Source of the DNA: a virus
Lineage: Duplodnaviria; Caudoviricetes
Strand: one strand, 5' to 3'
Length of the DNA stretch: 64,000 nt
IMG/VR virus record: IMGVR_UViG_3300035670_000195
Location: 704-64,703 of that record
A program made the position numbers and the translations under genes. The notes below the pieces were generated by a model. It saw only the letters and a list, made by a program, of their open reading frames with translations. It made no database searches and had not been told where the DNA came from. Positions within the stretch are counted from its first letter, which is position 1. Each line of letters begins with the position of its first letter. This document shows positions 6,983 through 52,033 of the stretch, piece by piece.

Positions 6983-6985
6983 GAA

Positions 6986-12449: not shown

Positions 12450-12469
12450 AACAAGTTATCCACAGCGCA

Positions 12470-16356: not shown

Positions 16357-16381
16357 GCGGGGAATCCGATAGTTTTTTCTA

Positions 16382-18301: not shown

Positions 18302-18342
18302 CACCTACCTTTCATCCTCCCTCCCGTCGAGGGGGAGGGTAT
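18302..18342 (-). repeat. early intergenic repeat A copy 2
   Basis: Identical to 16316-16356. Confidence 0.9.
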
Positions 18343-18365
18343 AACAGTTTGGTAGACAGTTTTTT

Positions 18366-19030: not shown

Positions 19031-19099
19031 CTCCGTTGGTTTGCGGACAGTCTGACACGAAAGGATTGTGTGGGATAGTTTCACCCACACACTCCGAGA
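19031..19099 (-). repeat. early intergenic repeat B copy 1
   Basis: 69 bp identical to 19716-19784; hairpin TGTGTGGG/CCCACACA. Confidence 0.92.
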
Positions 19100-19415: not shown

Positions 19416-19446
19416 GGTACAGTTCTCCTTAGTTTCACCCGCACAC

Positions 19447-19707
19447 TTACAGATACATCGCGACGATGATAGTGTTATCATAGCCGCTGCCGATCTTCGT
19501 GATACGCATACCGTCGACCTCGACAGTATCGACAATCACTTCGGGATAGAAGTTCTTGAAGTGGACGGTCAACAGTTCGTTGATATTTCCGTCGATATGC
19601 CGTTCGGCAAAGGTTTCCCCACAGCCTCGGATAGCCGTCCGACAGTTTCCGACAGGCATCATCGACAGACTGCGGATAGCGGTGGCGAGAACATTCAGGG
19701 TCGACAT
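19447..19707 (-). CDS. early hypothetical protein
   Basis: SD GGAG at the end of repeat B. Confidence 0.65.
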   Translation of the reverse strand: MSTLNVLATAIRSLSMMPVGNCRTAIRGCGETFAERHIDGNINELLTVHFKNFYPEVIVDTVEVDGMRITKIGSGYDNTIIVAMYL

Positions 19708-19715: not shown

Positions 19716-19784
19716 CTCCGTTGGTTTGCGGACAGTCTGACACGAAAGGATTGTGTGGGATAGTTTCACCCACACACTCCGAGA
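19716..19784 (-). repeat. early intergenic repeat B copy 2
   Basis: Identical to 19031-19099. Confidence 0.92.
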
Positions 19785-21226: not shown

Positions 21227-21321
21227 ATACCTTCCTCCCTACGGCGGGGAGGGTATGCGGGGAAGTGGGGCAAGATTCCGCAAGATTCTTTGCGGCATAG
21301 TTTGCAAGGTTTCTTCGCGTT

Positions 21322-22159: not shown

Positions 22160-22409
22160 AAAAGTTCCTGTTAAATGGTCGAGTGAAATGTCAAATCCAA
22201 ACGCTTGCTCAAACGGTCGAGTGAAAAGCTATCTAGGTTAACCCTAAGGTTATATCCTAAGATTTCTCCTCCCCCCACCCTAAGAATTTTTATTGTTGGA
22301 TTTTTAATTGGCTTATATAATTTACTTCAGCTTACCCCCTATAGGTAAGCTTGCTTTAATTTTAGGTCTTACCATCGACCAAGAAGAATTAAAAACTCTT
22401 TCTTCTTAT

Positions 22410-22423
22410 TACGTCTCGCGTTC
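22410..22423 (-). promoter_or_regulatory. putative phage RNAP promoter (copy 2)
   Basis: GAACGCGAGACGTA core followed by ATAAG. Confidence 0.65.
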
Positions 22424-22477
22424 ATTGGTGGGTTCAATTCCCCATATCAAAATACCCATCTAGAATCCCATTACAGC

Positions 22478-22524
22478 CATTCTAAGCCTAGGGGGTATGG
22501 AGATACCCCCCAAGCGTTAGAATG
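22478..22524 (-). terminator. long hairpin after the giant virion gene
   Basis: CATTCTAA/TTAGAATG outer and GGGGGTAT/ATACCCCC inner stems. Confidence 0.55.
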
Positions 22525-22538
22525 TCTTAGAAAGGATT

Positions 22539-25500: not shown

Positions 25501-28500
25501 GCCATACCTTCGGTTTCAATCTTTGCTCGCAAATCAAGCTCAGCTCTTCTTTGCTGATATACTTGTAGTGTATCAAGCATTCGTCCCTTTGCGGCTTTAA
25601 GATCTGATCTTGCCTTGCTATGCTCTGCGCTTGCTTCCATGTCTCCAAGGAACGCAGCAACCTCACCAAATTCATCAGGAATCATGTCTGTTGTAAGGAT
25701 TGTTTTCTGATCTGGAACATATCTAAACGGCATTGCGTCTTGATAAAACTCTCGCGTTGTTCCTATTGGCATACCTACAGAGTCAGCTGGATCTACCTTT
25801 TGAGTTAGAATTCTCATAGTAGATTGAGCAATCTTATAAAGCCCAGAACTCTTTAGAGAATCTTGAGTGTTGATGCCAAGACCTCTTTCAAAGTCTACCA
25901 TCAACTTCATGGTCTTTGTTTTTGTCCTTGGATTTGTTACCCTAGTGGACATTGACTCAAACGCTTCAGAGATCATTGAGTGCATATACTTATTGTTTGT
26001 TAGCGGATTTGTAATAAACTCCATAACATTGTAAACATGGTATAGTTTATTATCTGCCGCCGCATTACCATCACTAAGAATGTCATAGAATCTCTCTGTT
26101 AGCTGAGCATCAGATAGTTCTCCGCCTCTAAATTCATCAAGGTAAGCAGCCCTTTCTAATTCTACCGTTTCAAGATAGACTTGACAAAGTTCCTTAACTG
26201 TCTTTTCCATTGCGGATAGGTTATTTCCCCTAGCCGCAAGACGTTCAACAACCAAGCGCGCTTCATCAAATCCCTTTGTATCAGCAGAAATACCAAGCTC
26301 TCCAATTATTCTATCTATCTTACGAACCGTAACAGCGTGTAGTAACTCATGTAGTGCTGTCTCTCTAAAGATAGTTAATGGCTTTCCTTCTGTTTTGCCT
26401 TGACGCAAGATGTTTACAATGTCCAACTCAACCATGTTGACCAAATCATAATAAGTGCCAAGAGCTTTTCCAGAACCTGTAGCAAATACAGCTACCTGTT
26501 CAAGTTCGTCTTTACCTATCTTCTTAAGGTCTTCAATGATTGCGCTTTGAACTGTACCCTTACCCATCTTCGTTTCTAGTGCTAGAAGAAGTTGATACCC
26601 ATTATTGATCGTACCATCTAGAACATCCTTGATAATATTCTTATCAAGTTTATTATAGATGATTTCAATTGGAGCTAGATCAACGGAGTATTCTTCACCC
26701 TCTTCTGGAAATAGACGATGGACGGTTGCTTCAAAGTCAGCCAACTCTTCCATAGAGATGTTATCTAGTTTCTGCTGATATACAGTTACCTGATCTGCGG
26801 TTTCTGTTACAACAGTGTTTCCCTTTGAATCCTTATGATCGACCGAGAAGTTCTTTACCTGTTGGCTAATAGCTCCCTGCTTTTCTTTAGCTGTTCTGGC
26901 AGTAAGCAACCTTGTTCGAGTTAGTTCTATGGCAAAATTAGTATGCGTAATACCAACCATATTAACAACTTCGTCTACAATTTTCTGAAATTCAGATTGT
27001 AGGTTTTTAAATTGTTTTTGATCGTAAGCTGGTTTATTATTTCTTACTCTTACTTCGTTAACTTTTTCAATAGCTGTTCCTCGTACTTGAGCAACACCTT
27101 CCTCTTCCATTACTACAGTCTGACGTTCAGTAAAGAAATCGGCAAGATCTGTTCGGCCACGTCTTTGTAGTTCGTCAAAGACAAAGCCTGATAGAATTTT
27201 CTGGTGTTCAAGATAGGAATTTGTTAGTATAGCTTCTCTATTAGAGGCAACAAGACCTTCATCTGCAATGTCAAACCTACGACCAGTAGTAGCGTTTTCC
27301 GCATCAATATTGATTTGATTAGCTTCAAACCTATTTGGACCAGAACCAAGTCTTTCTTTTCTTTCCAGGTTCTTAAGAATTCCTCTTAATAAACCCCTAA
27401 AGGATTCTGGCAAATCATCTCCATCTCTTACAGCTGCTCTTAACAAACCTCTGTAATCGTCTGTGGACATTCTTGCCCATTCGCTAGTAAGATCTCCAGA
27501 CTTAATTGCAAGCTCTGTCTCTATTCTCAATAGCTTATTTATAGTTTCATCGTCTCCGATTTTGCGGAAGATTATATTTGAAAACTTTAAAAAGTCGAAC
27601 TCTTTACGGTTCATCAACACTTTAATTGTTGGATGCTGAAAGATTTGAGCAGTTGCATTTAGATCTACATTAAGTTCTAGCTTTGCGTTATTAAACCTAG
27701 AAGCTAAAAGCTCTACCGCTAGTGGTTCTAGAACAATAGAAGCTTTTTGCATTCTCTGCATTGCATAAGCAGTCATCAGATCTACTTTCTTACTGCTGCC
27801 ATAAGAATTCTGTAGTTCAGACTTGGCTTTTTCAAATCGCTTGTTAAGATTAGTTTCATTCATCATACCAACAAGCTTTAGCTCTGGTTCAATTGGTTTA
27901 CCTTCACGAATTGTATTTGCTAACAGTACAGCAATCTTATATTCAGTTGTGTTTCGATCAAATTTTGTTGTAAGCAGATCAGTCAATAGTGAAGCTGCCG
28001 CAGAATCAGATACATCTTGAGCAATATATCCATGCTCTTTTCCGTAAGCGACAACAACCATAGCAGCCTGTTTATTTAACTCGGCATCACTAAGCTGTGT
28101 AAATGCCTGTTCCTTTAGGGCTTGTTTTTCCTTTGCCGCATCAGCTGCCTTCTGAACCTGTTCGATATCGGATACGGTTTTCATCGGTCCAAGTTGAACT
28201 CGTTCTAGATGCTTTTCATATAGAGTAATAGTTGCCTTCTGCTGATCTGTTGGCTTTGAACTTGCCTTAGCTTCATTATATCTTTTTACGTTTGCTGCAT
28301 CAGAGATGTAAAGCTTTGATTCTTGATAGGTTACAACAGCAGCCGCTTCTCTCTGAGCGCGGTGGCCCTTACTTAGAATCTCAAGATTATCCTTTAGCGT
28401 TGCAGATGCAGGAAATATTCCAGATTCAATTACTTCATCTGGCATTCTTGTTCCAGCCATAATTGCTTCTAGAGCGCTTCGTTGTTCTACCTTAAATTTT

Positions 28501-31500
28501 CCTTGATCGATTGCTGTATCAATTCTTTCTGAAACTTCAGAGAACTTTAACTGCTCTTCCTCAGATAGTGTTGTGATCTTTAGCTTTTCTTCTGCTAGTT
28601 CTACGGCCTTTAAATTCATAAGAGCTGCAAGATACTGCTTAGAAAGTTCTGGAGCCTTAGAGTTAGTCGTAATTGAATCTAGTATTCTAGTTAAGTTTTC
28701 CTTACTAATGATTGAAGAATCTACCAGGCGTTCGACAATAGCTGCATCGGTTGGGCTTAGTGACTCCCTTGCAGTATTAACCCGTGTTTGTGCTGCATCC
28801 TTTGCTTTACGAACTCTACGTCTAGTGGGTTCATTAGTAGTAGGCGGTCCATTTACAACAACCACAGGAGATTGTTCTACTGGTTGTGGTGGAGTACTAA
28901 TTGCATTAGCAGCTTGTTCTGGTGTATCAAAACCAGCTATAAGAGCTTCAGCTTCTGCTGTAAGTTGCATGACACTATTGTCTTGCACATCTCTTGCCGC
29001 AGCTACTGCTACTTCGTTTGGAGTAGCGTCTGGAATAAGAATACCATTCTCATCCACAAGTGTATTTTTAGGTGCGGTTGCTGGAGCAACAACAGTAATA
29101 TTAGTATCAATAGATGATCTTGATTCCGCTAGTCTAGCGCCTTCACTTTGCTGTTCAACTTCTTTTTCAAGAGCAGCCTTTGCATCTGTCTCGGCCTTTT
29201 GAATTGCCTTTCTACGCACAACTTGACCAGCTCCTTGAACCTGTTCATTTACAGAATTGGTTCTTGCGTCTGCCTTTGACTTATCTTCAGCAGCCTTCTT
29301 AGCTTCAGCAGCAGCCTTCTTAGCTTCAGCCTCAGCCTTCTTCTTTTCAGCCTCAGCCTTCTTAGCTTCAGCCTCAGCCTTCTTCTTTTCAGCTGCCTCA
29401 GCAGTCTTTGCGGCCTTTTCTTCGGCAGCCTTTTTCTTAGCTTCAGCCTTCTTTGCCTTAGCTTCAGCAGCAGCTTCAGCCTTCTTAGCTCTGGCTTCTT
29501 CTCTGCTTGCCTTCTTAGCTTCAGCCTCAGCCGTTTTCTTTTCAGCAGCAAGTGTTTTCTCTGCTTCTTTTCTAGCCTTAGCTTCAGCCTTCTTAGTTTC
29601 TTCTTCTGCCTTGATTAGTTCCTTAAGCTTCTGTTCTTCAAGCTTACTAGTAACTAGTCTTTCTCTTCTAGCTAGTTCATCAAGAGCAGTATCAACTGTA
29701 ATATCAAAGCCTCTTGTTCTTACCACAACTCCCAAGCTTCCATCATCGTTTAGTCTGATCCCGATATCATCAATTGCAAGCGGTCTATACGCTACAGCAA
29801 ATGCGGGGTCGGTACTAGCCAAATCAATAAACGCCATAAGTTCTTTTGTGGCAACTGTCTTTAGCCTGTCTGGAGTGACATCAACTCTATTCTGTGCTGC
29901 ACGATCTCCACTAAATGTTAGATTTCCTCTATCAATTGCGGTTCGCTCAAGTTCAGAATTTCTAGCCAACTCCGATGCAAGAGTCTTTACAAGCTCTCTC
30001 TTTCTAAGTTTGAAAGCCTCATCGCTTTCTCCCTCGTTCTTATTAAGAGAGTTTAACCATTCTCTAACTCGTCTACGAGAGACAGATCTTCCAAGAGCAT
30101 TGTCTAGTTTTAGAGCAGCTTCTTCTGGAGAAATGTTTCTAACCGTACTGGATTTAACCAGTGGATCGATTGTAGATTTTTCTGCCGCAGCAAGTAACTC
30201 TTGTTTAGCCTTCCAGTCATTGAACCTGGCTTCACCAAGAATGTGAACACCGACTTGATCTCTAAGTTCTGGGCTTTGTGTCTTGAATACACCTTCCCAA
30301 GCGGCTGAGAAGATATCATCGATGTTTGCTTCCGAGCGAGCAAGAAGAATACCAAAGACTTCTTCTGCTTCTGCAGTCATGGTCAGCTTTGCCTCTTCGG
30401 TTTCGGCTGACTTTAGCTTCTCGCCTACACCACCAACAAAATCTCCAAGCTTATTGAAGAGACGCTTTACGGAAGAATCTCCCTTGGTAGCCTTGTTCAT
30501 TAGGACAGAACGCATATAGGCATTCCAACCGTTGGCAAGTCTTTCCTGTACTGTCACAGAATTAATGTCTGCTTCAATTTCGTCTGGTGTCTTTGGAGTT
30601 CCGTCTGCATTTTCAAACTTAACCCCAGCCCACTCTAGGAACTTTCGCTCCATAGTCTCTGTAATGCCAAGCTTACGAAGCGTATCGGCATTGTATAGAC
30701 CGCGACCAAAGACCGTGTTGATTGCAAAGTGTCCCATTTCGTGAACAAGCGAACCAAGATCGCTGGACTTTGTGGCACGAATCAATGCACGGTTTGCACC
30801 TTCAGTTGTAAAGAATGCAATCTCGGCTCGAGAGCTATCAAGGAAGCCAGCCTTACCAGCTGTACCGCTGGCAAATCTTAGCGTAGTTTCCATTGGTCCG
30901 AATCCAAGCGCTCTTACAACAGCATAGCCGACAACGGCCTGCTGCGGTGTAAGACCAAAGAGACGAGCAAGAAGCTTTGGATTTGGATGCTGGCCATTGT
31001 CCCATGCCTTCTTAAGCTGGGCAATATCTGCATCGACTGTCTCTGGAGCAGCGGAGCTTTTTCTTGCTTCCTCTGCCATTCTAGTCACAGCCTCATCGCT
31101 AAACAAAGCTCTGACTTTTTCATTTAACTTGTTAATTTCAAGAGCAACCTTTTCGGATGATACTACATCATCGCCAGATAGATCTCTTAGTTCAATCTTG
31201 GAACCGTCTGGTTGCTCGACAAAAATCTTAAACTTGTCATCGACAACTTCCAGTGTAGTCTTAAGCGGAGTTACAGAACCACTCTTCTTATTTACACGAA
31301 CGGCACTTGCGCCTGATACAACTGTAAACTCATCCTGTGGTGCCATCGCATCAAGAACACCTTGCTTGATTCCATTAGCTTCATCTACCTTAAGAGAGTA
31401 GGTGCTTAGCTTTGCTGGATCAAAGTCAAAGAGTTGCTTTAGAATCACAGAAGAAATAGCTTGATCGATTCTTCCATGCTCATAAGCAGCTGTGACTAGT

Positions 31501-33431
31501 ACACTATCCCAGTCTGCATCATCTATGATATCGACGGGACGAAGCTTTAGATCCTCTGCCTGTTTAACAATAGCTGAGAAGTTTAAACCTCTAGTCTCTA
31601 GCTGCTTAGAGATTGATAGGGCATTTAGTCCTCTACCAACAGCTCTGGTCATAATTCCATAGTCAAGCTTATCAAGCTTTGAAATACCATCAAGAGCCTG
31701 ACCAACACGCGTAGGCGCAGTTGGAACATCCTTAAGCTTTAGATTGATTTCATCTAAAAGACCAACGACATCGTCAGCGCTAAGACCCTTCTTTGAGAAG
31801 TTCTCAACATCGACCAATGCCTTGAAAATATCTGCGGCTTCTCCACCAGCAACGCCGCGCATTGCGGCTTCACCAGCAACGCCAGTAATCGATTCAAAGC
31901 GTTCGATGATTGGTGTTGCCTTCTCCATATCAATATTTAGCCGAGCGGCTACAATTGGATCTGCTGCCCCCCAGACTCGAGTACCGCCAGCAAGAACGTT
32001 GGTAAAGTTTCTACCATCAATATCTCGCCGTGCCATTCGATCAAGAGCATCGCCAAAGTAAATACCGCGACCGCCTGATAGGGTATTACCCCATACGGTC
32101 AAGCCCTGTGGTGAAGTAGCCCAGTTATCGAGAGAGCTTGTCCACTCTCTACCATAAGCCCTGAGCATGTCTCCAAAGGTTCCACCAGCCGACTTGACTC
32201 GACGCATTGCGGGAACATCGCCCAACGCACCTAGCGCAGTTCTTAGCGTTCCAAGCGCAAGGACTCCAAGACCAGCCGACATGATTGCCGTATCAAAAGC
32301 CTGTGAGTAATCTGCCTTGAATGGTAAGCCCTGCTTATCATTATAGAGAAGATCCTTAATAGCATAATCATTCTCTTGTGTCTTTAGGTTTGTAAGATAT
32401 CCAGCTGTGCCGCCTTCTACGGCAATGGCTGCGGCTCTTGCGCCGACTACACCAATTCGTGGAGCTGCTGCTCGTAGCGCAACAAATGCTGGGCCTTCAA
32501 CAAAACCAACCATTGGCCCAGTAAACTTAAGGGCTTGATGAGTTAGCTGTGCAACTCTTGTTCCTGCCTGAATGCCAGCTGCACCTAGACGGGCAGCGGC
32601 AAGTTCAACGGTTCCAAGACCAGCGGTAGCCGCTGTAGTTACTAGAAGATCTCTAGCAAAGTATGGATCTTGTACCATCTCTGCGGCATTCCAGCCAAGT
32701 CTACGATACCAACCTAGGTCAGCTGTTTCATAGATTCCATAACGCTTCTGTTGAATGCCGTCTTTAATCTTCTGCTGAATAGCAAACCTAAGTTGAATTT
32801 TATTTCTACTTGATAGTGCAAGGTTTACAAGATCGACTCCATATGCGGAAGCAAGCTCTCCAATCTCAGGATCTGCATCCATAAGTTTCTTAAGCTCTTC
32901 AAGCTTTCGCTCTGGAGTAAAGCTGTCATCTTGTGACTGCAGCAGCTTTGTGGTCATCTCGTTTAATTCTTCGGTGCTGTTTGCAGTAAAAGGCATTGCA
33001 TCAAGAAGACTGCTCCACCAGTCAGACATGTCACCGCTTTGTAGCGATTCCACCTCTGCGGCCTTTGCAAAGTCTCTATACTTTCCTTGAGTCAACTCTC
33101 TATAGAGTTCTCTCTGTGGCTGGGAGGTTGTCTCTCCCCAGCCAGATGCGCTTGCCGTTTCCATCATTCTCTCAAGACCAGCCGCTGCCTTCTGATATAC
33201 CGTAGAGTCATCTACAATAGTATCGAAGTCGCCAGCGTTTAGGGTTGGAATTCTAATTCCAGCTCTAATTTCGCTTAGTCTTTTTTCGCGTAGTATTCTT
33301 TCATAGGGATCTTCATCAAGTGGATGAAAGCCCTGATTGTAAACTTCCTGTCTGTACGCTGGTACAACGTTTGTTGGTTGTGTAAACCAGTCATATTGCT
33401 TAGGCGACCATTGAGTTGGTTTGTTTTCCAA
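22539..33431 (-). CDS. giant internal virion/ejection protein (gp16 position), about 3630 aa
   Basis: Last and largest of the internal-virion block; TTG start after SD AAAGGAG; HEMGH and HELLH motifs; AEAKK repeats. Confidence 0.8.
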   Translation of the reverse strand: MENKPTQWSPKQYDWFTQPTNVVPAYRQEVYNQGFHPLDEDPYERILREKRLSEIRAGIRIPTLNAGDFDTIVDDSTVYQKAAAGLERMMETASASGWGETTSQPQRELYRELTQGKYRDFAKAAEVESLQSGDMSDWWSSLLDAMPFTANSTEELNEMTTKLLQSQDDSFTPERKLEELKKLMDADPEIGELASAYGVDLVNLALSSRNKIQLRFAIQQKIKDGIQQKRYGIYETADLGWYRRLGWNAAEMVQDPYFARDLLVTTAATAGLGTVELAAARLGAAGIQAGTRVAQLTHQALKFTGPMVGFVEGPAFVALRAAAPRIGVVGARAAAIAVEGGTAGYLTNLKTQENDYAIKDLLYNDKQGLPFKADYSQAFDTAIMSAGLGVLALGTLRTALGALGDVPAMRRVKSAGGTFGDMLRAYGREWTSSLDNWATSPQGLTVWGNTLSGGRGIYFGDALDRMARRDIDGRNFTNVLAGGTRVWGAADPIVAARLNIDMEKATPIIERFESITGVAGEAAMRGVAGGEAADIFKALVDVENFSKKGLSADDVVGLLDEINLKLKDVPTAPTRVGQALDGISKLDKLDYGIMTRAVGRGLNALSISKQLETRGLNFSAIVKQAEDLKLRPVDIIDDADWDSVLVTAAYEHGRIDQAISSVILKQLFDFDPAKLSTYSLKVDEANGIKQGVLDAMAPQDEFTVVSGASAVRVNKKSGSVTPLKTTLEVVDDKFKIFVEQPDGSKIELRDLSGDDVVSSEKVALEINKLNEKVRALFSDEAVTRMAEEARKSSAAPETVDADIAQLKKAWDNGQHPNPKLLARLFGLTPQQAVVGYAVVRALGFGPMETTLRFASGTAGKAGFLDSSRAEIAFFTTEGANRALIRATKSSDLGSLVHEMGHFAINTVFGRGLYNADTLRKLGITETMERKFLEWAGVKFENADGTPKTPDEIEADINSVTVQERLANGWNAYMRSVLMNKATKGDSSVKRLFNKLGDFVGGVGEKLKSAETEEAKLTMTAEAEEVFGILLARSEANIDDIFSAAWEGVFKTQSPELRDQVGVHILGEARFNDWKAKQELLAAAEKSTIDPLVKSSTVRNISPEEAALKLDNALGRSVSRRRVREWLNSLNKNEGESDEAFKLRKRELVKTLASELARNSELERTAIDRGNLTFSGDRAAQNRVDVTPDRLKTVATKELMAFIDLASTDPAFAVAYRPLAIDDIGIRLNDDGSLGVVVRTRGFDITVDTALDELARRERLVTSKLEEQKLKELIKAEEETKKAEAKARKEAEKTLAAEKKTAEAEAKKASREEARAKKAEAAAEAKAKKAEAKKKAAEEKAAKTAEAAEKKKAEAEAKKAEAEKKKAEAEAKKAAAEAKKAAEDKSKADARTNSVNEQVQGAGQVVRRKAIQKAETDAKAALEKEVEQQSEGARLAESRSSIDTNITVVAPATAPKNTLVDENGILIPDATPNEVAVAAARDVQDNSVMQLTAEAEALIAGFDTPEQAANAISTPPQPVEQSPVVVVNGPPTTNEPTRRRVRKAKDAAQTRVNTARESLSPTDAAIVERLVDSSIISKENLTRILDSITTNSKAPELSKQYLAALMNLKAVELAEEKLKITTLSEEEQLKFSEVSERIDTAIDQGKFKVEQRSALEAIMAGTRMPDEVIESGIFPASATLKDNLEILSKGHRAQREAAAVVTYQESKLYISDAANVKRYNEAKASSKPTDQQKATITLYEKHLERVQLGPMKTVSDIEQVQKAADAAKEKQALKEQAFTQLSDAELNKQAAMVVVAYGKEHGYIAQDVSDSAAASLLTDLLTTKFDRNTTEYKIAVLLANTIREGKPIEPELKLVGMMNETNLNKRFEKAKSELQNSYGSSKKVDLMTAYAMQRMQKASIVLEPLAVELLASRFNNAKLELNVDLNATAQIFQHPTIKVLMNRKEFDFLKFSNIIFRKIGDDETINKLLRIETELAIKSGDLTSEWARMSTDDYRGLLRAAVRDGDDLPESFRGLLRGILKNLERKERLGSGPNRFEANQINIDAENATTGRRFDIADEGLVASNREAILTNSYLEHQKILSGFVFDELQRRGRTDLADFFTERQTVVMEEEGVAQVRGTAIEKVNEVRVRNNKPAYDQKQFKNLQSEFQKIVDEVVNMVGITHTNFAIELTRTRLLTARTAKEKQGAISQQVKNFSVDHKDSKGNTVVTETADQVTVYQQKLDNISMEELADFEATVHRLFPEEGEEYSVDLAPIEIIYNKLDKNIIKDVLDGTINNGYQLLLALETKMGKGTVQSAIIEDLKKIGKDELEQVAVFATGSGKALGTYYDLVNMVELDIVNILRQGKTEGKPLTIFRETALHELLHAVTVRKIDRIIGELGISADTKGFDEARLVVERLAARGNNLSAMEKTVKELCQVYLETVELERAAYLDEFRGGELSDAQLTERFYDILSDGNAAADNKLYHVYNVMEFITNPLTNNKYMHSMISEAFESMSTRVTNPRTKTKTMKLMVDFERGLGINTQDSLKSSGLYKIAQSTMRILTQKVDPADSVGMPIGTTREFYQDAMPFRYVPDQKTILTTDMIPDEFGEVAAFLGDMEASAEHSKARSDLKAAKGRMLDTLQVYQQRRAELDLRAKIETEGMAGKDVSALEQRLDDLIVSADERQRILRGMGLHEELEPRDLEAMTNIVNGNSAFYTADVKQTLEYMRRLEASRAVAKIEKPMAYRDMNNEERTLFLIETMMPAVERAIGTRNQTAGVFSLFTDSVVGKKANQFIGGAVDYSKTADSDSMFLQFISKFFDPMMDLRDGELNLAFNMPSIDKLNSIIEGMYQKSGLIEAYDKVKAVAPDQETLNYINDTAWDYLARRDELPEGTRFKNEILAVIDSVNNLNKELHESLVKYGGLRSSSSSAEEYGTVRRAGKMAYQNPKKFAEALYKHMLNRSKLAHEKGEVSAVASEALGWINYTRSDSSDEIISISLTENSPLAKLFPDKEVDQKIAWSEARKVLKNGVEKLTKEESDKLFKALESSEDYKSSYKSVHAGRDSSYSVIRQAAEIARNRYMNFGDVGDTKSVKPRSESVGGGRDYAEERIITHDDLARDRELAQFFDKNIMRLTNDLLRGQGTEALSTKMMTDFFGGNVRITVLDMIEIFRNAGEGVRRGDVDPQVMAQVNKGYDRVKAVWEEFLGMSRGDADSMDPYYRDALLNSRYTVLLAGGVRAALSSVPELSRAIVASDHNKSKLRQIFPNLMLAMRYGFGGNREKLNQMASAYHWIRNMSAETLLARTEALPDNPFHGVAFGGRRGWFSTWTNQWNAIRGVNEVETSKFRKLLNYAGFPASIAGAPLAWINMVTTAIHVHNAQMNLTRNAKNFKKLVELMDGRTIKNMAEFERLADSAGLSSKEALDLSTAGILNPKIVDILVDMAADPKTKSDEMLDISKMYRWAREQTKYNVDDVDNAIAALGQYVGMTTRHTNTEPTLLDKRVNNSVYSKALSIFMQFLLSHSIQEIGRRRRYSTINYGKHIVGLMTMEAGVYALGRMYRGEEPYEDNNVEAFVRIATGMPMLGSYQYLAALLRQSAFAAYNTWSDTNTFEEQIRVPGLIDAPADTAPKRAMKGVGWGMTVLQDILKEGF
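29260..29640 (-). repeat. Ala/Glu/Lys (AEAKK) coding repeat
   Basis: KKAEAEAKKAEAEKKKAEAEAKKAAAEAKK. Confidence 0.9.
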
Positions 33432-33455
33432 GATTGGTTCTCCTTTTGTTTGAGT

Positions 33456-33492
33456 AAAAAAAAATGATCGGTGGGCTGTTACACCCACCGAC
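33456..33492 (-). terminator. intrinsic terminator
   Basis: GGTCGGTGGG...CCCACCGATC stem followed by A and T9. Confidence 0.85.
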
Positions 33493-33498
33493 CTTATG

Positions 33499-33711
33499 TT
33501 ATGCCATTGATGGCCTATTGAAATCAGATACAGCAATTGTCTTAAGTAGACTGCGTATTACTTTTCCAAAGTTCTTTTGCTTTGTAGTTTGAATAAGCTG
33601 TGCTGCACCCTCTTCTCCGACACCGCCAAACGATGCTGTATCTAACCAATCGTAGAAGTCTTGTAGTTCTTCTTCAGTATGATATAGCATTTGAAGTTGG
33701 GACCATAGCAT
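33499..33711 (-). CDS. small ORF or frameshifted C-terminal extension of the upstream protein
   Basis: Fills the gap to the terminator; no clear SD. Confidence 0.4.
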   Translation of the reverse strand: MLWSQLQMLYHTEEELQDFYDWLDTASFGGVGEEGAAQLIQTTKQKNFGKVIRSLLKTIAVSDFNRPSMA

Positions 33712-36700
33712 TTGAAGTTGTTTCTTGTGGGCTTGCTACAACATCAACCTCAACTGGAACAGGCTCACTAATTAGATCGGTAGATAGTACGCGTCTAACT
33801 GTTTTACCCATCGTCACAGTATCTTCGATTACGGTACGGCTAATTGAATTGTCTTGGTTTCTATTGTACTGTATGAATGTTTTTCTTTCACCAGCACGCC
33901 CAAGACTCTCAACCTTAACAAGCTCATTGGTAGCATTAAGTGTTGGACGAGACTTTAGAATCTCAAGATTCTTAGTATCATAGCGACCAAAGCTTAACTC
34001 TCCAGCTAGTTCTGGGGCAGCCTCAATAGCCTCTGAGTTAATTACCCGTCTGCTTACTTCCTCGGTTTCAGTGTAAGGCGAACCAAGAAGAACTTTTCTA
34101 TTCTTCTGTAGCTTGGTTGCGACTAGAACACTATGGCCATCTTCGGTCTGCTCCACGGAATACTTCATTTGAGTTCCGTCGTTTAGGTTAATAGTTGTTG
34201 GTCCTCGTTCGGTAACAACTCGTCGCATTAGATATTCTGCAGCTGACGATCCAGCTTCATTCACACCATCTGCAACCATCTTAACTACTTCTTCCTGTGC
34301 CAGACCATTTTCCCAAGTAGGACTTGGCTTAACACCAACAACAGAAAGTGGAGTAATTCCAAGCTTGACTCTAGTCTTTCCAGTGGAATCGACAGCCCTA
34401 AACTCTAGACTATTCGATCCTGTCTGAATAATTTCACCAAGCTTTCCTGCTTGTATATCTCTCTTTGTCCTGTTATAGTTATCTCTTGTGACTGCTTGTC
34501 CAGTACTGACTACAAAGGATAGAGCGGCAATACTAAGATTATCTGAGTCTTCTCCAAGAACAGAAACAATTGAGTTTACCAAGTCTGTTCTATTTACTTT
34601 TGTTGCTGCTTCAGACCCACTGATCTGAGAGAGTACTGCGCCAACTGGAGTTAAATCTGCAGCAGGAACTGCAGCATTAAATCCATAGCCCCGTTTTGTA
34701 AAGTTTGTTCCAATGTCTGATCGATCAGAAACCATTGAAGCTTGTAAGAACATATCTCTAAGGACAACTTTATTATCAGTAGGATAGCTAGAGTTTTGAG
34801 AGAAGTCTTTAATTAGTTCGGAATCTGGCTCTACATTTTCCCAGACCTTAGTCTGCGCAACAATCTTAGTCTTTCCATTTTCTCCAGGAATGTTAACAAA
34901 ATCGTATTGGCTTAATTCCTGTCTGACTCTATTGCCCCAACGTTCCTTTGCATTTGAATCTAAAGCAAACAACGGAGTGTCTTGATCTGCAAGTTCAAGA
35001 AAGGCTGTTTGAACCGCCTTCTCAAAAATCATTTCAGTTGCTGGATCCATGTAGTAATTTGCTTCCATTTCAGAAGCATTAAACATCTCTAAACCAGGAA
35101 TCTCGTTTACTCTTGCAAATCTATCAACCATTTCTGGTAATGTTCTAGTAACTGCTCTTAGTCTTTCTGCAGTATACTTATCCATGTACTCTTTACGACT
35201 TTCGCTTCCCCCCGCTTTTTCGCGGAATCTAAATAGTACTGAAGTTACAAAGCTAGGTTCGAGAATCATCTCCAACGTATCAGCATGTTTAGCATACTGT
35301 GCTTGCAACTTAGCTAATGAATCGAAACTTATTGATCCGCCAGATTCAATTCCTTCATGTAGTGCAACATAGTTATCTACATTTCGTCTAAAAGCTGGAG
35401 AGATATTGTATCTATCATCCTTTTTTAAAGCAGTAATAATTGAATCTCTAGTTCTTTGTGGATACCCTAATGTTGGGTATACAGCAACTGGAGAAAACGT
35501 TTCCGCATCAAATGAATTTGCAAGAGCGCTGACCAAAGTCGTATTATACGGTATATCTATATTACGTCCAACCAATGCGTCTTGTGTTGGAGGAGACAAT
35601 GATCGTAGTATTGATTCAAGTTTAGCTAATTTATCTGCGTTTTGTTGAGAACTTGAATCCAGTCTTCCAAGCGATTGAATCTCTACGCCAAAGTGTTCCA
35701 TAACTAATGTAAATGGAATGTTACTTCTGTTTTCTTCTGGAATAGAATCATGCCAAGCTAAGAATCCAACTGGTTCTCCATTCTTAAATAGCGGAGAAAG
35801 CTTATTTAATTCTTGTCTTGTAGCATCGGCTATTCTATCTGATGTAAGCGTTGGGGTACCTGGGCGTAGATCTCCTGTTACCATAGCCTGTGCAACTAAA
35901 GAATTTTCTTGTGCTTTTTTAATTCGGCTTTCTCCATCGCCGCCTCCAGAGGGAACATACTTTCTTCTAAGTTCTTCAAAGTTTATGCGTCCTCGAGATA
36001 CTACACCAACCATTCCTGTGTTATATGCAGTTTCATCGACGGTAGCAGTTAGAAGATCAAATCCACTAACACTAGCCGTGTAGTCATCTTCAGAGATGTC
36101 TGCAGGAGATAGGCCACGACTTACTAAGAATGCTGAATACGCACCGTACAGTTCTCTTTGTTGTACCTTAGGAGAATACAGAGACTGTAGCATTCTTCCT
36201 GTTTGATTTAAAACCTGTTTAAGAAGATCATTCTTTTGATTTTCTGGAAGATCGCTTTGTTGTATTTGCTTAAGCTTTGTATCCTGTTGGGCAAGAATCT
36301 CATCTGTTCGTCTTGTTAAAGCTTCGTTTCTTTGTTTAAGATTAGCTTTATAATTATCTACAGCAGTTCCTCTTGCCGCAAACTGCAATTCTTCAAGCGA
36401 AGTAAAAACTCTATTGATATTGTCAAACTGTTCTTTTGGAATAAAGCCAGTTAGTTGCATCTGTAAAGTAGTTAGATCAAGTGTACCATCTTCTTTAATT
36501 GGAATCTCTAAGCCATACTTTTCGGCAATTTGAAAAAGAAGACTTGTTCCCTTTTGCATAGCTTCGTTAAACTTGGCTATATCTCTAGGGTCATCTTCCA
36601 TATTAAACTCTGTACGCTCTGATGCTAGTTTTAATTCTTTAACAGCAGCGTCTACATCGGCAGCTACAATAGCAGACAGATTGACAAACTGGTCAAGTTG

Positions 36701-37783
36701 ACCTTTCTCTCTTTGCTCAAGTTCCTTGGCAAAGGCTTCACTCATACCAGCCTTTGTCTTCTCTGCTAGTTCAACTAAGCCACCGATCTTTGGAAATGCT
36801 TTCTCGTATCTTGCTTTATCAAAGGGACTCATTGTCTTCCATGCTTCGGCAAACGATACTGATACTGGAACTACATCTACAGAGCCGACAAAATCTTTGG
36901 GCTGTTGTGTAGAGAACTGAGTAAATCCATCTGCAACCAACAGTTCACGAAGTTGTTCTTCTATGATTGAGTCTACTTCTTCTGGTGTTTGTGCCTTCTG
37001 AATATTCAACTCAACCTGTGCAAGACCAAATCCAAGAGCCTGCTGTCTATCCTCATACTGCATAAGACCAGCTTGAATCTCATCTTGAACGGCAGCTGTC
37101 TTGGTAATTAAACCAAATCGTCTATTAAAGACTCTCTGTCCTCGCTGCGATAGTTTTAATGACTCTCGTTGTAATGCTTTAAAGGCTTGATCTCTTTCGG
37201 TTTCTAGTGCCTTTACTGCAGCGGCATCATTAATCTTTTGTGCTGCACCAATTCTTGCATCATAAGATCTTGAAGTAAATTCAAGCTCATCAGCTAAGTC
37301 CTGTTCGTTATTTTCTCTAGCATACTTAGCATCTTCAATTGCTTGAGTCATACCGAAATCGGTATTAGTTGCTCTAGCTCTGAAGAAAAGATCTCTTTTA
37401 AATCGACTTTCTGGAATGTTTTCATCCGATGTAAAATCAGGTGTTTCGAGTAGTTGATTTACTTTAGCTTGGTATGCTGTAATTAAAGTAGGAACCTCAG
37501 CTTCCCGACCCTCCGCATACTTTAGCTTAATGGCATAGTCAGTATCTCGACTATACTCATCAAGCATATTTCGTAGCTTGTCTTGTTCGTTCTGAATCTT
37601 TTCTTCTTTGTAGCCAGAATAGATATCTCCAGCTACCTGTAGCGCTGTCTGTCCAATCTGTGTCCAGTCAACACCAGGATCATAGCCAATAGATACCTGA
37701 GGAAGAATTGTTCTTCCCTCCTGATAGACATCTACCTGAGGAGCTATCGCAAACTGCGGAGCTTCAAATGGCATTCTACTCAT
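33674..37783 (-). CDS. internal virion protein (gp15 position)
   Basis: 1369 aa, largely helical, position in the virion block. Confidence 0.7.
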   Translation of the reverse strand: MSRMPFEAPQFAIAPQVDVYQEGRTILPQVSIGYDPGVDWTQIGQTALQVAGDIYSGYKEEKIQNEQDKLRNMLDEYSRDTDYAIKLKYAEGREAEVPTLITAYQAKVNQLLETPDFTSDENIPESRFKRDLFFRARATNTDFGMTQAIEDAKYARENNEQDLADELEFTSRSYDARIGAAQKINDAAAVKALETERDQAFKALQRESLKLSQRGQRVFNRRFGLITKTAAVQDEIQAGLMQYEDRQQALGFGLAQVELNIQKAQTPEEVDSIIEEQLRELLVADGFTQFSTQQPKDFVGSVDVVPVSVSFAEAWKTMSPFDKARYEKAFPKIGGLVELAEKTKAGMSEAFAKELEQREKGQLDQFVNLSAIVAADVDAAVKELKLASERTEFNMEDDPRDIAKFNEAMQKGTSLLFQIAEKYGLEIPIKEDGTLDLTTLQMQLTGFIPKEQFDNINRVFTSLEELQFAARGTAVDNYKANLKQRNEALTRRTDEILAQQDTKLKQIQQSDLPENQKNDLLKQVLNQTGRMLQSLYSPKVQQRELYGAYSAFLVSRGLSPADISEDDYTASVSGFDLLTATVDETAYNTGMVGVVSRGRINFEELRRKYVPSGGGDGESRIKKAQENSLVAQAMVTGDLRPGTPTLTSDRIADATRQELNKLSPLFKNGEPVGFLAWHDSIPEENRSNIPFTLVMEHFGVEIQSLGRLDSSSQQNADKLAKLESILRSLSPPTQDALVGRNIDIPYNTTLVSALANSFDAETFSPVAVYPTLGYPQRTRDSIITALKKDDRYNISPAFRRNVDNYVALHEGIESGGSISFDSLAKLQAQYAKHADTLEMILEPSFVTSVLFRFREKAGGSESRKEYMDKYTAERLRAVTRTLPEMVDRFARVNEIPGLEMFNASEMEANYYMDPATEMIFEKAVQTAFLELADQDTPLFALDSNAKERWGNRVRQELSQYDFVNIPGENGKTKIVAQTKVWENVEPDSELIKDFSQNSSYPTDNKVVLRDMFLQASMVSDRSDIGTNFTKRGYGFNAAVPAADLTPVGAVLSQISGSEAATKVNRTDLVNSIVSVLGEDSDNLSIAALSFVVSTGQAVTRDNYNRTKRDIQAGKLGEIIQTGSNSLEFRAVDSTGKTRVKLGITPLSVVGVKPSPTWENGLAQEEVVKMVADGVNEAGSSAAEYLMRRVVTERGPTTINLNDGTQMKYSVEQTEDGHSVLVATKLQKNRKVLLGSPYTETEEVSRRVINSEAIEAAPELAGELSFGRYDTKNLEILKSRPTLNATNELVKVESLGRAGERKTFIQYNRNQDNSISRTVIEDTVTMGKTVRRVLSTDLISEPVPVEVDVVASPQETTSNAMVPTSNAISY

Positions 37784-39404: not shown

Positions 39405-41072
39405 TTATCTCCTGTAATGACGATCTAGAATAGACCGTGCTGTTTTATTCTTTTGTACTCCAGCTAAAGCACCAGACATTCGGTCTGGCAACAGCGTAAA
39501 GATACGCTCGTTGCTTAGCCAGTTCTTAACGGTTTCTCTGTGTTCTTTTTCCTTATTGCGTTCAATAAGTACATCTGGATTAATAATCATTTCATCAGCC
39601 CAGTTCTTTACAGCACTTGCAAGAATATCTACGCGGTCATCGTGCTTTAAAGCGCCGCGCTTATCCTGCATTCTAGTAAGCTGTATCTGGGTTTCCTTAT
39701 TATTTATTGCCGAGGTATCGAAGATAAGTCGATGCTGCGACATGACGGGTTCCAGAGTATCTAGAATTCGACGCTCCTTATTTCCCGATACCTTGAATTC
39801 CTCAATGGCAATTCGTCCAGCAACTCTGGCAACGACTGGCCGCAGCAGTGATGAGAACATACCATCACCATAGTTAGACTCGACTCTGATTATGTTTGCG
39901 TTGTATTGCATTGCAAGTCTTGCGATCTTTACTAAGGTCGATTCATCATAACCGCCGTCGATACCAGTCAGAGCATGGATTACGATATAGCCGTTGACAA
40001 AAGATGCAACACATACTGCCGTTTCATCTGCGCCTCTACCAGAGGGATCAACAAACAAAACGGTTTCGTTGTATTGCTTCATCGTTTCCGACTTCCACAT
40101 AGGACCATAGATCAGATCTCCGTTGATGCCATAGGATGGAATCTTTAATGGCTGACCTCTTCCCCATACAATCTTCTCTGGAAAGATCTCTGGGCTGCAA
40201 TCCATGACAATAAGATCCTCGAGCCGCAGTGGAAACTTAGCGAAGTCACTAAGAGTTGGATCTAACTTATAGTGTAAGTTAAACTGTCGCGGTCCAATCT
40301 TTGCCAGTCTTTCATCTAGAATGTGTTGGGGGAATCTAGTTGGATCTACGCTGTGACCAACCTCTGCCTCCAGTTCTAGAATATAGGGATGTACATTTGT
40401 AATCTCCGATTCAATTGATGGATCTGGCATTACTGCTGGAAACTTTACAATCGGATACGGAAGTCTAAGGTAGATAGAGTCTGTTGATTGGAAGGTTCCA
40501 AGCAACACAATACGACCCCAAGATACGGGGTTGCGAATCTGTTCCAGCTCAGCCAACTTATCAATAAGCTTGTTTCTAGCTGCTGGAGTGTCTGCGTTCT
40601 TTTCGATTTCAATATCATCTCCAAGAACATAATCAGCGTGGCTACCTGTAATCTGACCAGTAATGCCCTTGGCATAGCATGACATGTCCTGACCAATCTT
40701 ACTTCGTGTACCAACGTTGAAGCCAAAGGCATTATCCTTATCGAATTCCTTTGGCAGTAGATGTGCCATGTAAGGCACTAAGGTAAGGATCTGTCTTACC
40801 TGTGCAATGAACTTAATGGCTCTATCCTGCGTTGCAGACAGAACCATGATGGTCGTGTCTGGGTTGTTTAACAGCAGCCAACTGGCATATGAAGCTACGA
40901 TGGTAGACTTACCAGCGCCTCTGCCTGCCTGTAGCTGCATGTCTTTCTGTCCATTCTGAACCTCTTCCGCAATGGCGTATTGCAGTGGAGTCGGTTCTCC
41001 AAGACCTAGGTACTTCATGGTGAAGTACAGGTGGTTTCTGAAATCCTGATAGATTTCCTGTGGTACTTCCAT
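39405..41072 (-). CDS. terL: terminase large subunit
   Basis: QAGRGAGKST, GQITGSHAD, DDIE, VDPSGRGADE, HDDRVD (T7 gp19-like). Confidence 0.96.
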   Translation of the reverse strand: MEVPQEIYQDFRNHLYFTMKYLGLGEPTPLQYAIAEEVQNGQKDMQLQAGRGAGKSTIVASYASWLLLNNPDTTIMVLSATQDRAIKFIAQVRQILTLVPYMAHLLPKEFDKDNAFGFNVGTRSKIGQDMSCYAKGITGQITGSHADYVLGDDIEIEKNADTPAARNKLIDKLAELEQIRNPVSWGRIVLLGTFQSTDSIYLRLPYPIVKFPAVMPDPSIESEITNVHPYILELEAEVGHSVDPTRFPQHILDERLAKIGPRQFNLHYKLDPTLSDFAKFPLRLEDLIVMDCSPEIFPEKIVWGRGQPLKIPSYGINGDLIYGPMWKSETMKQYNETVLFVDPSGRGADETAVCVASFVNGYIVIHALTGIDGGYDESTLVKIARLAMQYNANIIRVESNYGDGMFSSLLRPVVARVAGRIAIEEFKVSGNKERRILDTLEPVMSQHRLIFDTSAINNKETQIQLTRMQDKRGALKHDDRVDILASAVKNWADEMIINPDVLIERNKEKEHRETVKNWLSNERIFTLLPDRMSGALAGVQKNKTARSILDRHYRR

Positions 41073-41087
41073 TGGTACCTCCTTTCA

Positions 41088-41249
41088 ATACCTCCCACAG
41101 CCGCTAAACTGTGGAAGGCGTAGCGAAATCCACGCATGGCCCAGTGGATTAGGGCGGCCATAAAACCTACCCCACTTAAGGGATAGGCGGCCAATAGCGT
41201 ACCCCGACCACCCCATTACAGGGTGCCTATGTTGTCGAGGGTTCGCGGT
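41088..41249 (-). ncRNA. candidate structured RNA (four hairpins) between terS and terL
   Basis: Four adjacent stems whose mismatches are G-U pairs on the transcribed strand. Confidence 0.6.
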
Positions 41250-41450
41250 TTAACTTGCCTTGAACTTGAAGGGTACAAGCTTTTCTAGAGTTTCAGCACC
41301 AACAGAAGGAAGCTGTGACTGCTGCTCCTTGTTGTCTGCGATGACTCTGGATGCTGCTTGATACAAACCAGGAGATCGTCTCTCTGGATCCATCAAATCT
41401 TCGATAAGGCAGTCGATCAACAAATCCTTAAGGGTGTCGATTCTAGACAT
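41250..41450 (-). CDS. terS: terminase small subunit (gp18-like)
   Basis: ERRSPGLYQAASRVI resembles T7 gp18; directly upstream of terL. Confidence 0.7.
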   Translation of the reverse strand: MSRIDTLKDLLIDCLIEDLMDPERRSPGLYQAASRVIADNKEQQSQLPSVGAETLEKLVPFKFKAS

Positions 41451-41788
41451 TACTTGCCTTTCTTCTTGGTGTTCTGATATCTCTCCAACAGGCGGCGACC
41501 CTTGGCGACGGCTGATGCCTTATCGCCCATGTGGTTCCAAGCCTCGAGGCTCTTCTTCAGACGGGTTGGTCTACCCTTCTCGTCCTTGAGTGGACCCTTG
41601 GCTGAACCCATGCGTACAAGGAATGAACCCTGTCTACGCATCTCCTCTGGAGTCTTGGGCGCTCTGCCAACTGGTGCCTGTAGTTTGGAACCAGTAGCCC
41701 TGTTGTACTTGTCACGACCAGCTTGGGTAAGACCTCCCTTGGGATTCTTATCCTTCTTAGTCATGCTTACCGATGGCTTCTTCTTCAT
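41450..41788 (-). CDS. small basic phage protein (DUF6321-like)
   Basis: KNPKGGLTQAGR...GRPTRLKKSLEAW. Confidence 0.7.
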   Translation of the reverse strand: MKKKPSVSMTKKDKNPKGGLTQAGRDKYNRATGSKLQAPVGRAPKTPEEMRRQGSFLVRMGSAKGPLKDEKGRPTRLKKSLEAWNHMGDKASAVAKGRRLLERYQNTKKKGK

Positions 41789-42174
41789 CTGTACTTCCTT
41801 GTCTTTTTGGCAATTGCTTTTGGTTGGGCTACAAACTGCTTTCCAGCCTTTGTTCCCTGACGTTTGGCGGCTGAAGTAGCCGCATACTCTGAAGATGATA
41901 GAGCCTTGATAGCCTTGGCTGGGAGATATCTCTCTCCAGTTTCCTTTGATGGCTTTCCAGACTTGGTTCTCCAGTCCTGCTTTGTCCACTTAGTAAGGCT
42001 ATTGGATGAAGACTTAGCACCACGATAACCACCACCAGACTCCTTGTATAGCTTGGTGGCAATCTGAGCCTTTCTAGCAGACCACTCACCAGCGTCTCCA
42101 CCCTTGGAGCCAGCCTTTACGGAAGACACGATCTTCTTCCATTTGGCTTCGTTAGTCCGCTTGGCAGAACTCAT
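41785..42174 (-). CDS. small basic phage protein (DUF5872-like)
   Basis: GEWSARKAQ, KWTKQDWRTKSG, ERYLP. Confidence 0.75.
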   Translation of the reverse strand: MSSAKRTNEAKWKKIVSSVKAGSKGGDAGEWSARKAQIATKLYKESGGGYRGAKSSSNSLTKWTKQDWRTKSGKPSKETGERYLPAKAIKALSSSEYAATSAAKRQGTKAGKQFVAQPKAIAKKTRKYR

Positions 42175-51875: not shown

Positions 51876-51906
51876 GAAAACCACACTCCCCCTTTCGGGG
51901 GAGCAT
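51876..51906 (-). terminator. terminator after capsid gene (T-phi-like position)
   Basis: CTCCCCC-GAAA-GGGGGAG stem then TGTGGTTTT. Confidence 0.75.
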
Positions 51907-52033
51907 GGCTGTACGACGATACCGTGGGTATCGAAGAGATTTAGGATCACCTCCTTCAAAAGCGGACAACAAGCTGTGAAACAAACACGTTGTCTTGCCC
52001 TCCTTTCCTGTTGAGGTGAGGTTTGATCTAAGA

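Follow-up and report, generated by a model that had tools for sequence, protein, structure and literature searches.

The DNA analyzed here is a stretch of 64,000 nt (the window) that covers nearly all of a 64,703-bp virus record in IMG/VR (IMGVR_UViG_3300035670_000195), with direct terminal repeats and a completeness rating of 100%. According to the list of open reading frames (ORFs), every gene in the window is carried by the minus strand. The record encodes a single-subunit RNA polymerase, a primase-helicase, a DNA polymerase, an exonuclease and a ribonucleotide reductase, as well as a T7-type portal, scaffold, capsid protein, tail-tube proteins and collagen-like tail fibres. Among cultured phages, the nearest matches of the large terminase subunit gene (terL) are of the Autographiviridae type and do not exceed 40% identity; therefore, the record represents an uncultured large T7-like phage. 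The subject of this report is the non-coding spacer of 177 nt (41073-41249) between terL and the terS-like ORF upstream of it. The two flanking genes are:

41250-41450, minus strand: terS-like ORF of 66 amino acids (aa), probable small terminase subunit (T7 gp18-like); weak match to phrog_1351 'terminase small subunit' (E 4.4e-5)
39405-41072, minus strand: terL, T7-type large terminase subunit of 555 aa; matches to PF22530 (E 1.3e-34) and phrog_38 (E 1.1e-94)

The terS-like ORF ends with a TAA stop codon at 41252-41250 and has no Pfam match; its C-terminal ...PFKFK... is kept in relatives. The ATG of terL is located at 41072-41070, and the N-terminus of the protein is likewise kept in relatives. 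The protein is of the T7 type, including the RNase H-like nuclease domain. Downstream of terL, ORFs of 212, 324, 1369 and 3665 aa are found.

A structured RNA between terS and terL

The initial annotation, made from the sequence of the window, had proposed that this spacer folds into a structured RNA on the transcribed strand. The minimum free energy (MFE) of the sense strand is -80.4 kcal/mol, compared with a mean of -63.8 kcal/mol (standard deviation 4.7) for dinucleotide shuffles (z -3.54), and none of 200 shuffles was as stable. For the antisense strand, z was -1.45, and 18 of 200 shuffles were equally stable. A scan of viral contigs based on terL yielded 80 loci, and a corresponding scan of metagenome contigs yielded another 80. 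At the nearest loci, the spacers are 174-256 nt long and recognisably alike in sequence. An RNAalifold consensus of seven sequences contained 48 base pairs, 18 of them with compensatory changes, and served as the basis of a covariance model, R1. The predicted architecture is that of an RNA of ~155 nt with four hairpin domains, P1 to P4, and near-invariant single-stranded junctions between them. The parts are as follows (cells are those of the alignments described below):

41081-41244, minus strand: whole conserved motif, match to R1 with 114.8 bits, the only match in the 64.7-kb genome
41201-41242, minus strand: P1 domain, stem ACCCUCGAC/GUCGGGGU with the 5' internal loop AACAUAGG, which holds the CAUAG block; 97 of 97 cells paired, 7 of 7 pairs changed on both sides
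41193-41200, minus strand: J1/2 junction ACGCUAUU; with the preceding U, the conserved UACGCU
41156-41192, minus strand: P2 domain, outer stem GGCC(G)/(U)GGCC around the variable hairpin CCUAUCCC-UUAAGU-GGGGUAGG (P2a), with the 3' bulge UUUUA; P2 96 of 96 and P2a 93 of 96 cells paired, 6 of 8 P2a pairs changed on both sides
41151-41155, minus strand: J2/3 junction GCCCU; GCC conserved in all sequences, family form (U)GCC
41127-41150, minus strand: P3 domain, AAUCCAC/GUGGAUU with the loop UGGGCCAUGC; P3 35 of 36 and P3a 61 of 64 cells paired
41119-41126, minus strand: J3/4 junction UCGCUACG; with the preceding U, the most conserved block, U-UCGCUAC
41091-41118, minus strand: P4, G+C-rich hairpin of 11-12 bp, CCUUCCACAGU-UUAG-(CG)GCUGUGGGAGG; 168 of 168 cells paired, 9 of 12 pairs changed on both sides, 24 G-U pairs
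41078-41082, minus strand: Shine-Dalgarno (SD) motif of terL, GGAGG within UAUUGAAAGGAGG, from reading of the sequence

The MFE structure of the single sequence includes three of the four stems that had been listed at the outset, namely P1 together with the inner hairpin, P2 and P4. The remaining one, AATCCAC/GTGGATT, is replaced there by GCCC/GGGC and GCGUGG/CUACGC; although outside the MFE structure of the window, it is backed by the alignment of relatives, in which it forms P3. The RNA had also been placed just before the terL SD motif, which was borne out: P4 stops 8 nt short of it and is followed by UAUUGAAAGGAGG and then the ATG. Three alternative pairings (AUAGGC/GCCUAU, GGCCAU/AUGGCC and UCGCUA/UAGCGG) do exist in the window; they are shared only with its nearest relative, L206, and are not conserved.

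Within the family, the P1 loop presents CAUAG-N-C, and the inner hairpin of P1, CACCC-UGUAAU-GGGGUG, is optional, being absent from L008, L010 and L143. J1/2 reads UACGCU(A/G). Three of its nucleotides, U, A and C, do not vary among the 14 sequences that are aligned in register, and UACGCU was found by reading in all 16 distinct sequences. The outer stem of P2 is either GCCG/CGGC or GGCC/GGCC and encloses one or two variable hairpins, several of them GNRA-capped; two hairpins are present in L008, L010 and L200. The GCCC of J2/3 is able to pair with the downstream GGGC, and this is the pairing chosen in the MFE structure. The loop of P3 contains a conserved GGGC...AUGCG, which in relatives gives rise to an inner hairpin with one G bulged out, GGGCAU-UY-AUGCGCC. 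By reading, the P3 stem is compensatory, with CCAC/GUGG in the window, CCAU/AUGG in L002, CCAUCG/CGAUGG in L007 and UACUGG/CCAGUA in L008. The U-UCGCUAC block of J3/4 is invariant in the 14 in-register sequences, and its family form is UUUCGCUAC. L003 and L211 follow the same plan with other stems (CAUCUG/CAGAUG for P1, GACC/GGUC for P2, and a different P4) and have an inserted hairpin closed by GCCC/GGGC. Both junction boxes consist of U-N-CGCUA followed by a hairpin that begins with GCC; an internal duplication, with P1-J-P2 resembling P3-J-P4, together with a GCC/GGGC helix, is suggestive only.

Two insertions were observed between the motif and the start of terL. In L008 (1044-1127), L010 (2917-3000) and L200 (~4164-4247), P4 and the terL SD motif are separated by a further hairpin, which is long and irregular. 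Its stems differ compensatorily between L010 and L200, and its size resembles that of RNase III substrates. In L007 (~2920-3000) and L213, a mini-ORF of 20 codons with its own SD motif and ATG, in the ancestral terL start context, is located between motif and terL; from its sequence, it looks like an insertion of ~75 nt just past the original start codon.

Distribution, covariation and selection

Full-length matches to R1 were obtained for 13 of 81 sources, namely the window and 12 of the 80 terL loci. Five of the 80 metagenome terL loci also matched and added two new sequences, and five further viral contigs came from scans with DNA patterns. Altogether, the motif is present in 20 records (the window and 19 viral or metagenomic contigs) with 16 distinct sequences. 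In all 20 records, it occupies the coding strand of the spacer that separates the terS-like ORF from terL, and a single copy was found in each of the six records that were searched whole. In the motif-bearing loci of the viral-contig scan, terL is 63-72% identical to that of the window. The motif begins 4-15 nt past the terS stop codon; in L143 and L160 the stop codon lies inside the P1 loop. The first pattern used for the DNA scans, with 17 specified bases, returned mostly noise (4 of 118 loci matched R1), and tighter patterns returned 13 and 11 stretches. L202 and L204 were discarded as carriers of the motif, as they are chance pattern matches. The pattern scan of prokaryote genomes (one per species) gave nine stretches, none of which matched R1 except for a partial match of 23 nt (E 0.26); at the stringency of that pattern, there is no sign of the motif in cellular genomes.

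In the model-fitted alignment of 16 sequences, 97.2% of the cells are paired and 35 of the 48 pairs are changed on both sides, a number that none of 500 shuffles attained. In this alignment, L003 and L211 are out of register, with the P2 domain set on P1, and both were excluded from a recount. For the remaining 14 sequences, 610 of 619 cells are paired (98.5%), and 26 of the 48 pairs are changed on both sides, compared with a mean of 16.9 and a maximum of 23 in 500 shuffles, controls that overstate the significance because the sequences are related and belong to one clade. A stronger test is provided by controls in which the pairing partners were slid by 1-3 columns, which retain the relatedness; in both alignments, these left only 34-47% of the cells paired. 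Most of the double changes fall in P1, P2a and P4. Thus, the covariation in relatives is strong support for an RNA structure formed by the transcribed strand of the terS-terL spacer. Neither of the outcomes that the initial annotation had named as speaking against it, lack of covariation and a folding energy no better than that of shuffled controls, was observed.

It had further been stated that mismatches in the stems are G-U pairs on this strand. Indeed, the 619 pair cells contain 48 G-U pairs and no A-C pair; therefore, the fold belongs to the sense strand, and RNA is favoured. These counts bear directly on the possibility that the conserved element is a signal in the DNA, such as a pac-like terminase site, a signal for replication or priming, or a phage promoter. 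Single-stranded DNA could also form hairpins, and in other phages pac sites are often found in or near terS. Apart from the G-U pairs, which fit an RNA of one of the two strands, this possibility has to contend with the direct terminal repeats, which are at the ends of the record and ~20 kb or more away, and with the conserved blocks, which are not repeated in the genome in the manner of promoters. We consider a DNA-level signal exceedingly improbable. TTCGCTAC was examined as a phage promoter and rejected, as it occurs once in the 64-kb window; TACGCTA occurs six times, compared with 4.3 expected occurrences.

At fourfold-degenerate sites in identical terL codons, the identity between the window and eight relatives is 37-44%, i.e., these sites are saturated. 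In comparisons of the window with L001, L004, L008 and L010, the identity is 73-83% in unpaired columns of the RNA and 55-60% in paired columns, where the pairing is nevertheless kept. The unpaired blocks include CAUAG, UACGCU, GCC, GGGC and UUCGCUAC. Of the 43 well-occupied unpaired columns in the 14 sequences, 19 are invariant, among them UAG.C of the P1 loop, UAC of J1/2 and U.UCGCUAC of J3/4. A small ORF as the conserved entity was rejected: the ORF of 43 codons in the window (41085-41216) is not conserved and stops after nine codons in L001. The spacer RNA is genuine, selectively maintained and composed of multiple domains.

Comparison with known RNA families

When the window was searched against Rfam 15 (4227 models, among them those of ribozymes, riboswitches, pRNA and tRNA-like and Y-RNA-like families) at gathering thresholds, only three tRNAs were retrieved, all elsewhere in the window. 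No match was obtained for the region 40950-41400 even at E values up to 10, and at the same limit ten homologous loci gave six weak matches, none of them on the motif. ARAGORN found no tRNA or tmRNA in the spacer. The spacer also had no match by blastn among 50,697 phage records.

The initial annotation had offered a ribozyme as one possible function, and no Rfam ribozyme model matched, in the window or in the ten homologous loci, at E values up to 10. A new type of self-cleaving ribozyme, with a cut in the late mRNA between terS and terL, would be consistent with a compact multi-stem RNA that has covarying stems and invariant junction nucleotides, and with the location inside a phage operon; known small ribozymes are frequent in phage-like settings. 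It appears highly improbable, given that the helices are arranged in series, that no long-range or pseudoknot helix is supported, and that no candidate cleavage site can be named.

A second suggestion was a packaging-associated RNA analogous to the packaging RNA (pRNA) of phage phi29. The two are similar in length (~170 nt) and share the context of phage DNA packaging. However, the phi29 pRNA model (RF00044) did not match, and the context is the wrong one: the terminase is of the T7 type with a nuclease domain, and the element is in the middle of an operon, directly coupled to the start of terL, and not a gene with a promoter of its own at a genome end. A TerL of the T7 type, which brings its own nuclease domain, is not known to depend on an RNA. 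We regard a pRNA-like role as unlikely. More generally, the late transcript could give rise to a stand-alone, trans-acting RNA, for instance a packaging RNA, a protein sponge, or a small RNA with a CGCUA box as its seed. The length of ~155 nt and the stable hairpin P4 at the end, with 2-6 U after it in relatives, are reminiscent of small-RNA 3' ends, and the two CGCUA boxes and the CAUAG loop could serve as recognition sites. Nevertheless, we regard a trans-acting RNA as very unlikely: no sigma-70-like promoter was found on the coding strand of the spacer, the motif begins just past the terS stop codon or overlaps it (L143), and in the close group the tight spacing to the terL SD motif is conserved.

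The hairpin at the terL initiation region

More distant relatives have simpler spacers. Those with ~70% terL identity to L010 (L305-L319) contain a single 13-bp hairpin, followed by UAUU and the SD motif, and L013-L015 and L315 have a UUCGCUAC box and one hairpin directly before the terL SD motif. Of 59 distinct regions upstream of terL, 14 contain TCGCTAC, the reduced forms of L013-L015 among them. The common denominator of the series is a hairpin that abuts the terL initiation region. Therefore, P4 is tied to this region, and P1-P3 are an elaboration restricted to one subclade. The natural evolutionary series, from a single hairpin via a UUCGCUAC box with a hairpin to the four-domain motif, offers a guide for mutational analysis.

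P4 was not listed by a terminator scan of the coding strand of the window, although it is G+C-rich and has 11-12 bp. The tail after P4 is UAUU in the window and contains 3-6 U in relatives. This U-rich tail belongs to a context for translation initiation that recurs elsewhere among the late genes: UAUUGAAAGGA, which is like the context of terL, stands ahead of the gene that follows the capsid gene.

Alternatively, the element could be a passive module for processing and insulation, in which an entry site for RNase III or RNase E and protective 3' and 5' hairpins would split the late transcript without any sensing. T7 has two intergenic signals of interest here, the RNase III site R18.5 after gene 18, at which its late transcript is split in this manner, and the terminator hairpin T-phi after gene 10. 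Several observations are in line with such a module. Very stable hairpins are also present in other spacers of the genome, one after the capsid gene (z -5.1) and one of ~35 bp past the 3665-aa ORF (z -5.1), relatives have a single hairpin at the position of P4, L008, L010 and L200 contain the extra long irregular hairpin with a compensatory stem, and J3/4 opens with a U-rich single strand beside hairpins. Yet, a processing site would need neither four domains nor 19 invariant unpaired positions amid saturated synonymous sites, and P1-P3 were added to a simpler hairpin that is evidently sufficient in sister lineages. RNase III substrates usually comprise ~20 bp; P4, with 11-12 bp, is below this norm, and the window version has no helix of ~20 bp. 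Processing alone is thus a possible, if rather unlikely, explanation. Should it be true, it would extend the T7-style partitioning of operons at the RNA level to environmental phages.

A putative cis-acting leader of terL

A leader that acts in cis and has a folded binding core is suggested by the combination of stems that covary, junctions that do not vary and a constant location before the ribosome-binding site of one gene. With a probability of about 50%, we interpret the element as a cis-acting leader of terL that would bind a protein or a ligand through its invariant junctions and in which P4 adjoins the ribosome-binding site. Judging from the sequence, the RNA probably controls production of the DNA-packaging motor. 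The element would be transcribed within the late polycistronic mRNA and serve in cis as the 5' leader of terL. The invariant nucleotides of junctions and loops (CAUAG, the two U-N-CGCUA boxes and GGGC..AUGCG) would form a folded core or a binding surface for a trans factor, which might be a small ligand or an RNA-binding protein of the phage or its host, perhaps one of the terminase subunits in a feedback loop. The output would be exerted via P4, which could either set translation initiation or define the protected 5' end of a processed terL mRNA. As a consequence, the level of terminase would be uncoupled from that of the upstream structural genes.

In addition to the relatedness of the sequences mentioned above, several results weigh against a leader of this type. 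Five complete or nearly complete relatives (completeness estimates of 98-100%) have short spacers without the motif at E values up to 1, and therefore the motif is dispensable for a T7-type terminase of this kind. Transcripts truncated before the 3' strand of P4 fold without a common alternative partner for its 5' strand, so that no switch involving P4 was recognised. The best anti-SD site differs across 13 leaders, being in P1, P4, J2/3 or elsewhere, and a scan of all column pairs revealed no extra helix of at least 4 pairs with real covariation. For a translational switch, as the initial annotation had envisaged, neither a conserved mutually exclusive pairing nor a conserved anti-SD sequence was found. 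The P4 loop is conserved within subgroups, and in the close group it is complementary to CCAUCG(G) of the 5' strand of P3 (8 nt in L143); its complement is CGCUA in the window and in L206, and UUUCGC in the L008 type, i.e., the target is inconsistent between subgroups. Lastly, a comparison of the gene contents of three genomes with the motif (G000, G001 and G002) and three without (G006, G008 and G009) produced no candidate for an RNA-binding protein; with three genomes on each side and small proteins that are weakly detected, this comparison carries little weight. ORFs of 78, 97, 159, 329 and 3665 aa are present only in the motif-bearing group. A Pfam scan of the first four gave no informative match, and the 3665-aa ORF has no PHROG match. 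Among 14 sequencing runs considered, none was an RNA run that contained the phage.

A more far-reaching alternative is that the element contains the aptamer or the catalytic core of a new RNA class, i.e., a sensor of a metabolite or nucleotide signal or a self-cleaving ribozyme, which would gate synthesis of the packaging motor. The core would consist of the two U-N-CGCUA-GCC boxes and the CAUAG loop, and the class would be characteristic of a clade of uncultured T7-like freshwater phages of 60-70 kb. We regard this alternative, both in its general form and with this core and clade, as doubtful. If ligand binding or self-cleavage were true, the element would be a new class of functional RNA.

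As a putative terL leader, the element invites comparison with riboswitches and protein-binding mRNA leaders, for example those of ribosomal-protein genes, with which it shares covarying helices around conserved unpaired nucleotides, here multiple conserved helices with invariant junction and loop nucleotides, and the location in a 5' leader on the same strand. Unlike in riboswitches, no known aptamer family matched and no conserved expression platform was found, neither a terminator/antiterminator nor an SD/anti-SD pair. With T7, the phage shares the genome organisation, a structured RNA directly after the terS homologue and a stable hairpin before the next ribosome-binding site. In contrast to the T7 sites, which are single irregular hairpins, the element has four domains with invariant junctions and a P4 of 11-12 bp, and there is no sequence similarity by blastn.

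Leader RNAs before packaging genes have been catalogued before. Fremin et al. (2023; PMC10690425) report, in the main text of their study, 8495 candidate structured RNAs from IMG/VR, including 14 candidates upstream of a large terminase of the psiM2_ORF9 type, 6 upstream of Podovirus_gp16, and GP20-a and GP20-b (RF02991 and RF03003). The same text mentions the pseudoknot operator of T4 gene 32, another protein-binding leader. Like the candidates described there, the element emerged from a comparison of viral metagenomes, is located directly upstream of a packaging gene and is presumed to be cis-regulatory. Unlike GP20-a and GP20-b, it matches no Rfam family, these two included. The family is absent from Rfam 15; the comparison with the catalogue of Fremin et al. 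refers to the descriptions in its main text, and a prior listing in the catalogue itself is possible. A full-text search of the literature found no description of the motif. Thus, the kind of element, a phage leader RNA before a packaging gene, is already catalogued, and the family itself is new.

How the level and timing of terminase are controlled in tailed phages is poorly understood, and here a complex RNA is located exactly at the boundary of terS and terL, in a phage lineage that has no cultured member. It represents a well-supported new RNA family with riboswitch-like conservation and, at ~155 nt, is small enough for direct biochemistry.

Neighbouring genes and other elements of the genome

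Directly upstream of terS (41450-41989, minus strand) is an ORF with a DUF6321 match (E 2.8e-27). Within a 2.8-kb region around the spacer, this gene is the sole part with nucleotide similarity to cultured phages, and blastn of the region against the 50,697 phage records matched only the DUF6321-like gene of two of them, Pelagibacter phage HTVC033P (73%) and Roseobacter phage CRP-603 (68%). The giant ORFs downstream of terL, of 3665 aa (22539-33536, minus strand) and 1369 aa (33674-37783, minus strand), have no PHROG match at E 1e-5. The former contains an alanine/lysine-rich repeat with a period of 21 nt near 29266-29612, and its relatives are detectable only in the motif-bearing genomes G001 and G002.

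The operon had been described as tightly packed apart from the terS-terL gap. This is broadly right, with the qualification that there are further intergenic clusters of hairpins. The spacer after the capsid gene (51887-52033, minus strand, 147 nt) contains three hairpins (z -5.1). The last one is a G+C-rich hairpin of 13 bp followed by UUUU, and its position resembles that of T-phi after the T7 capsid gene. A nearly perfect hairpin of ~35 bp at ~22455-22545 (minus strand) follows directly after the 3665-aa ORF, in a spacer of 396 nt with z -5.1; it is likely to be an end-of-operon terminator or a target of RNase III.

A conserved block of ~20 nt, ..AAYGAACGCGAGACGTAW.. on the coding strand, occurs in three copies (12425-12453, 22405-22433 and 62967-62995, listed on the plus strand). 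One precedes the RNA polymerase gene, one follows the 3665-aa ORF and one is found where the block of late genes begins. These copies are candidate promoters or regulatory sites and would partition the genome into three units of transcription.

The three tRNA genes (Arg-UCU, Lys-UUU and Leu-CAA) lie at 6830-7058. The adjoining tRNA-like sequence at 7069-7137 (minus strand) scored 25.7 bits (E 0.0036) compared with the Rfam gathering threshold of 29 for tRNA and was not called by ARAGORN; the T-arm sequence of the neighbouring genes recurs in its 3' arm (repeat family D12). A G+C-rich palindrome (CCTCCCTCCC..GGGGGAGGG), the flanks of which are also conserved, is present three times in the region of the early genes, at 16316-16364, 18302-18350 and 21230-21264 (families D8 and D16); two of the copies have 41 identical bases in common. 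Also among the small early ORFs is an exact direct repeat of 69 nt (19031-19099 and 19716-19784), the copies of which are 685 nt apart, with a partial third copy at 19430-19457 (families D7 and D10).

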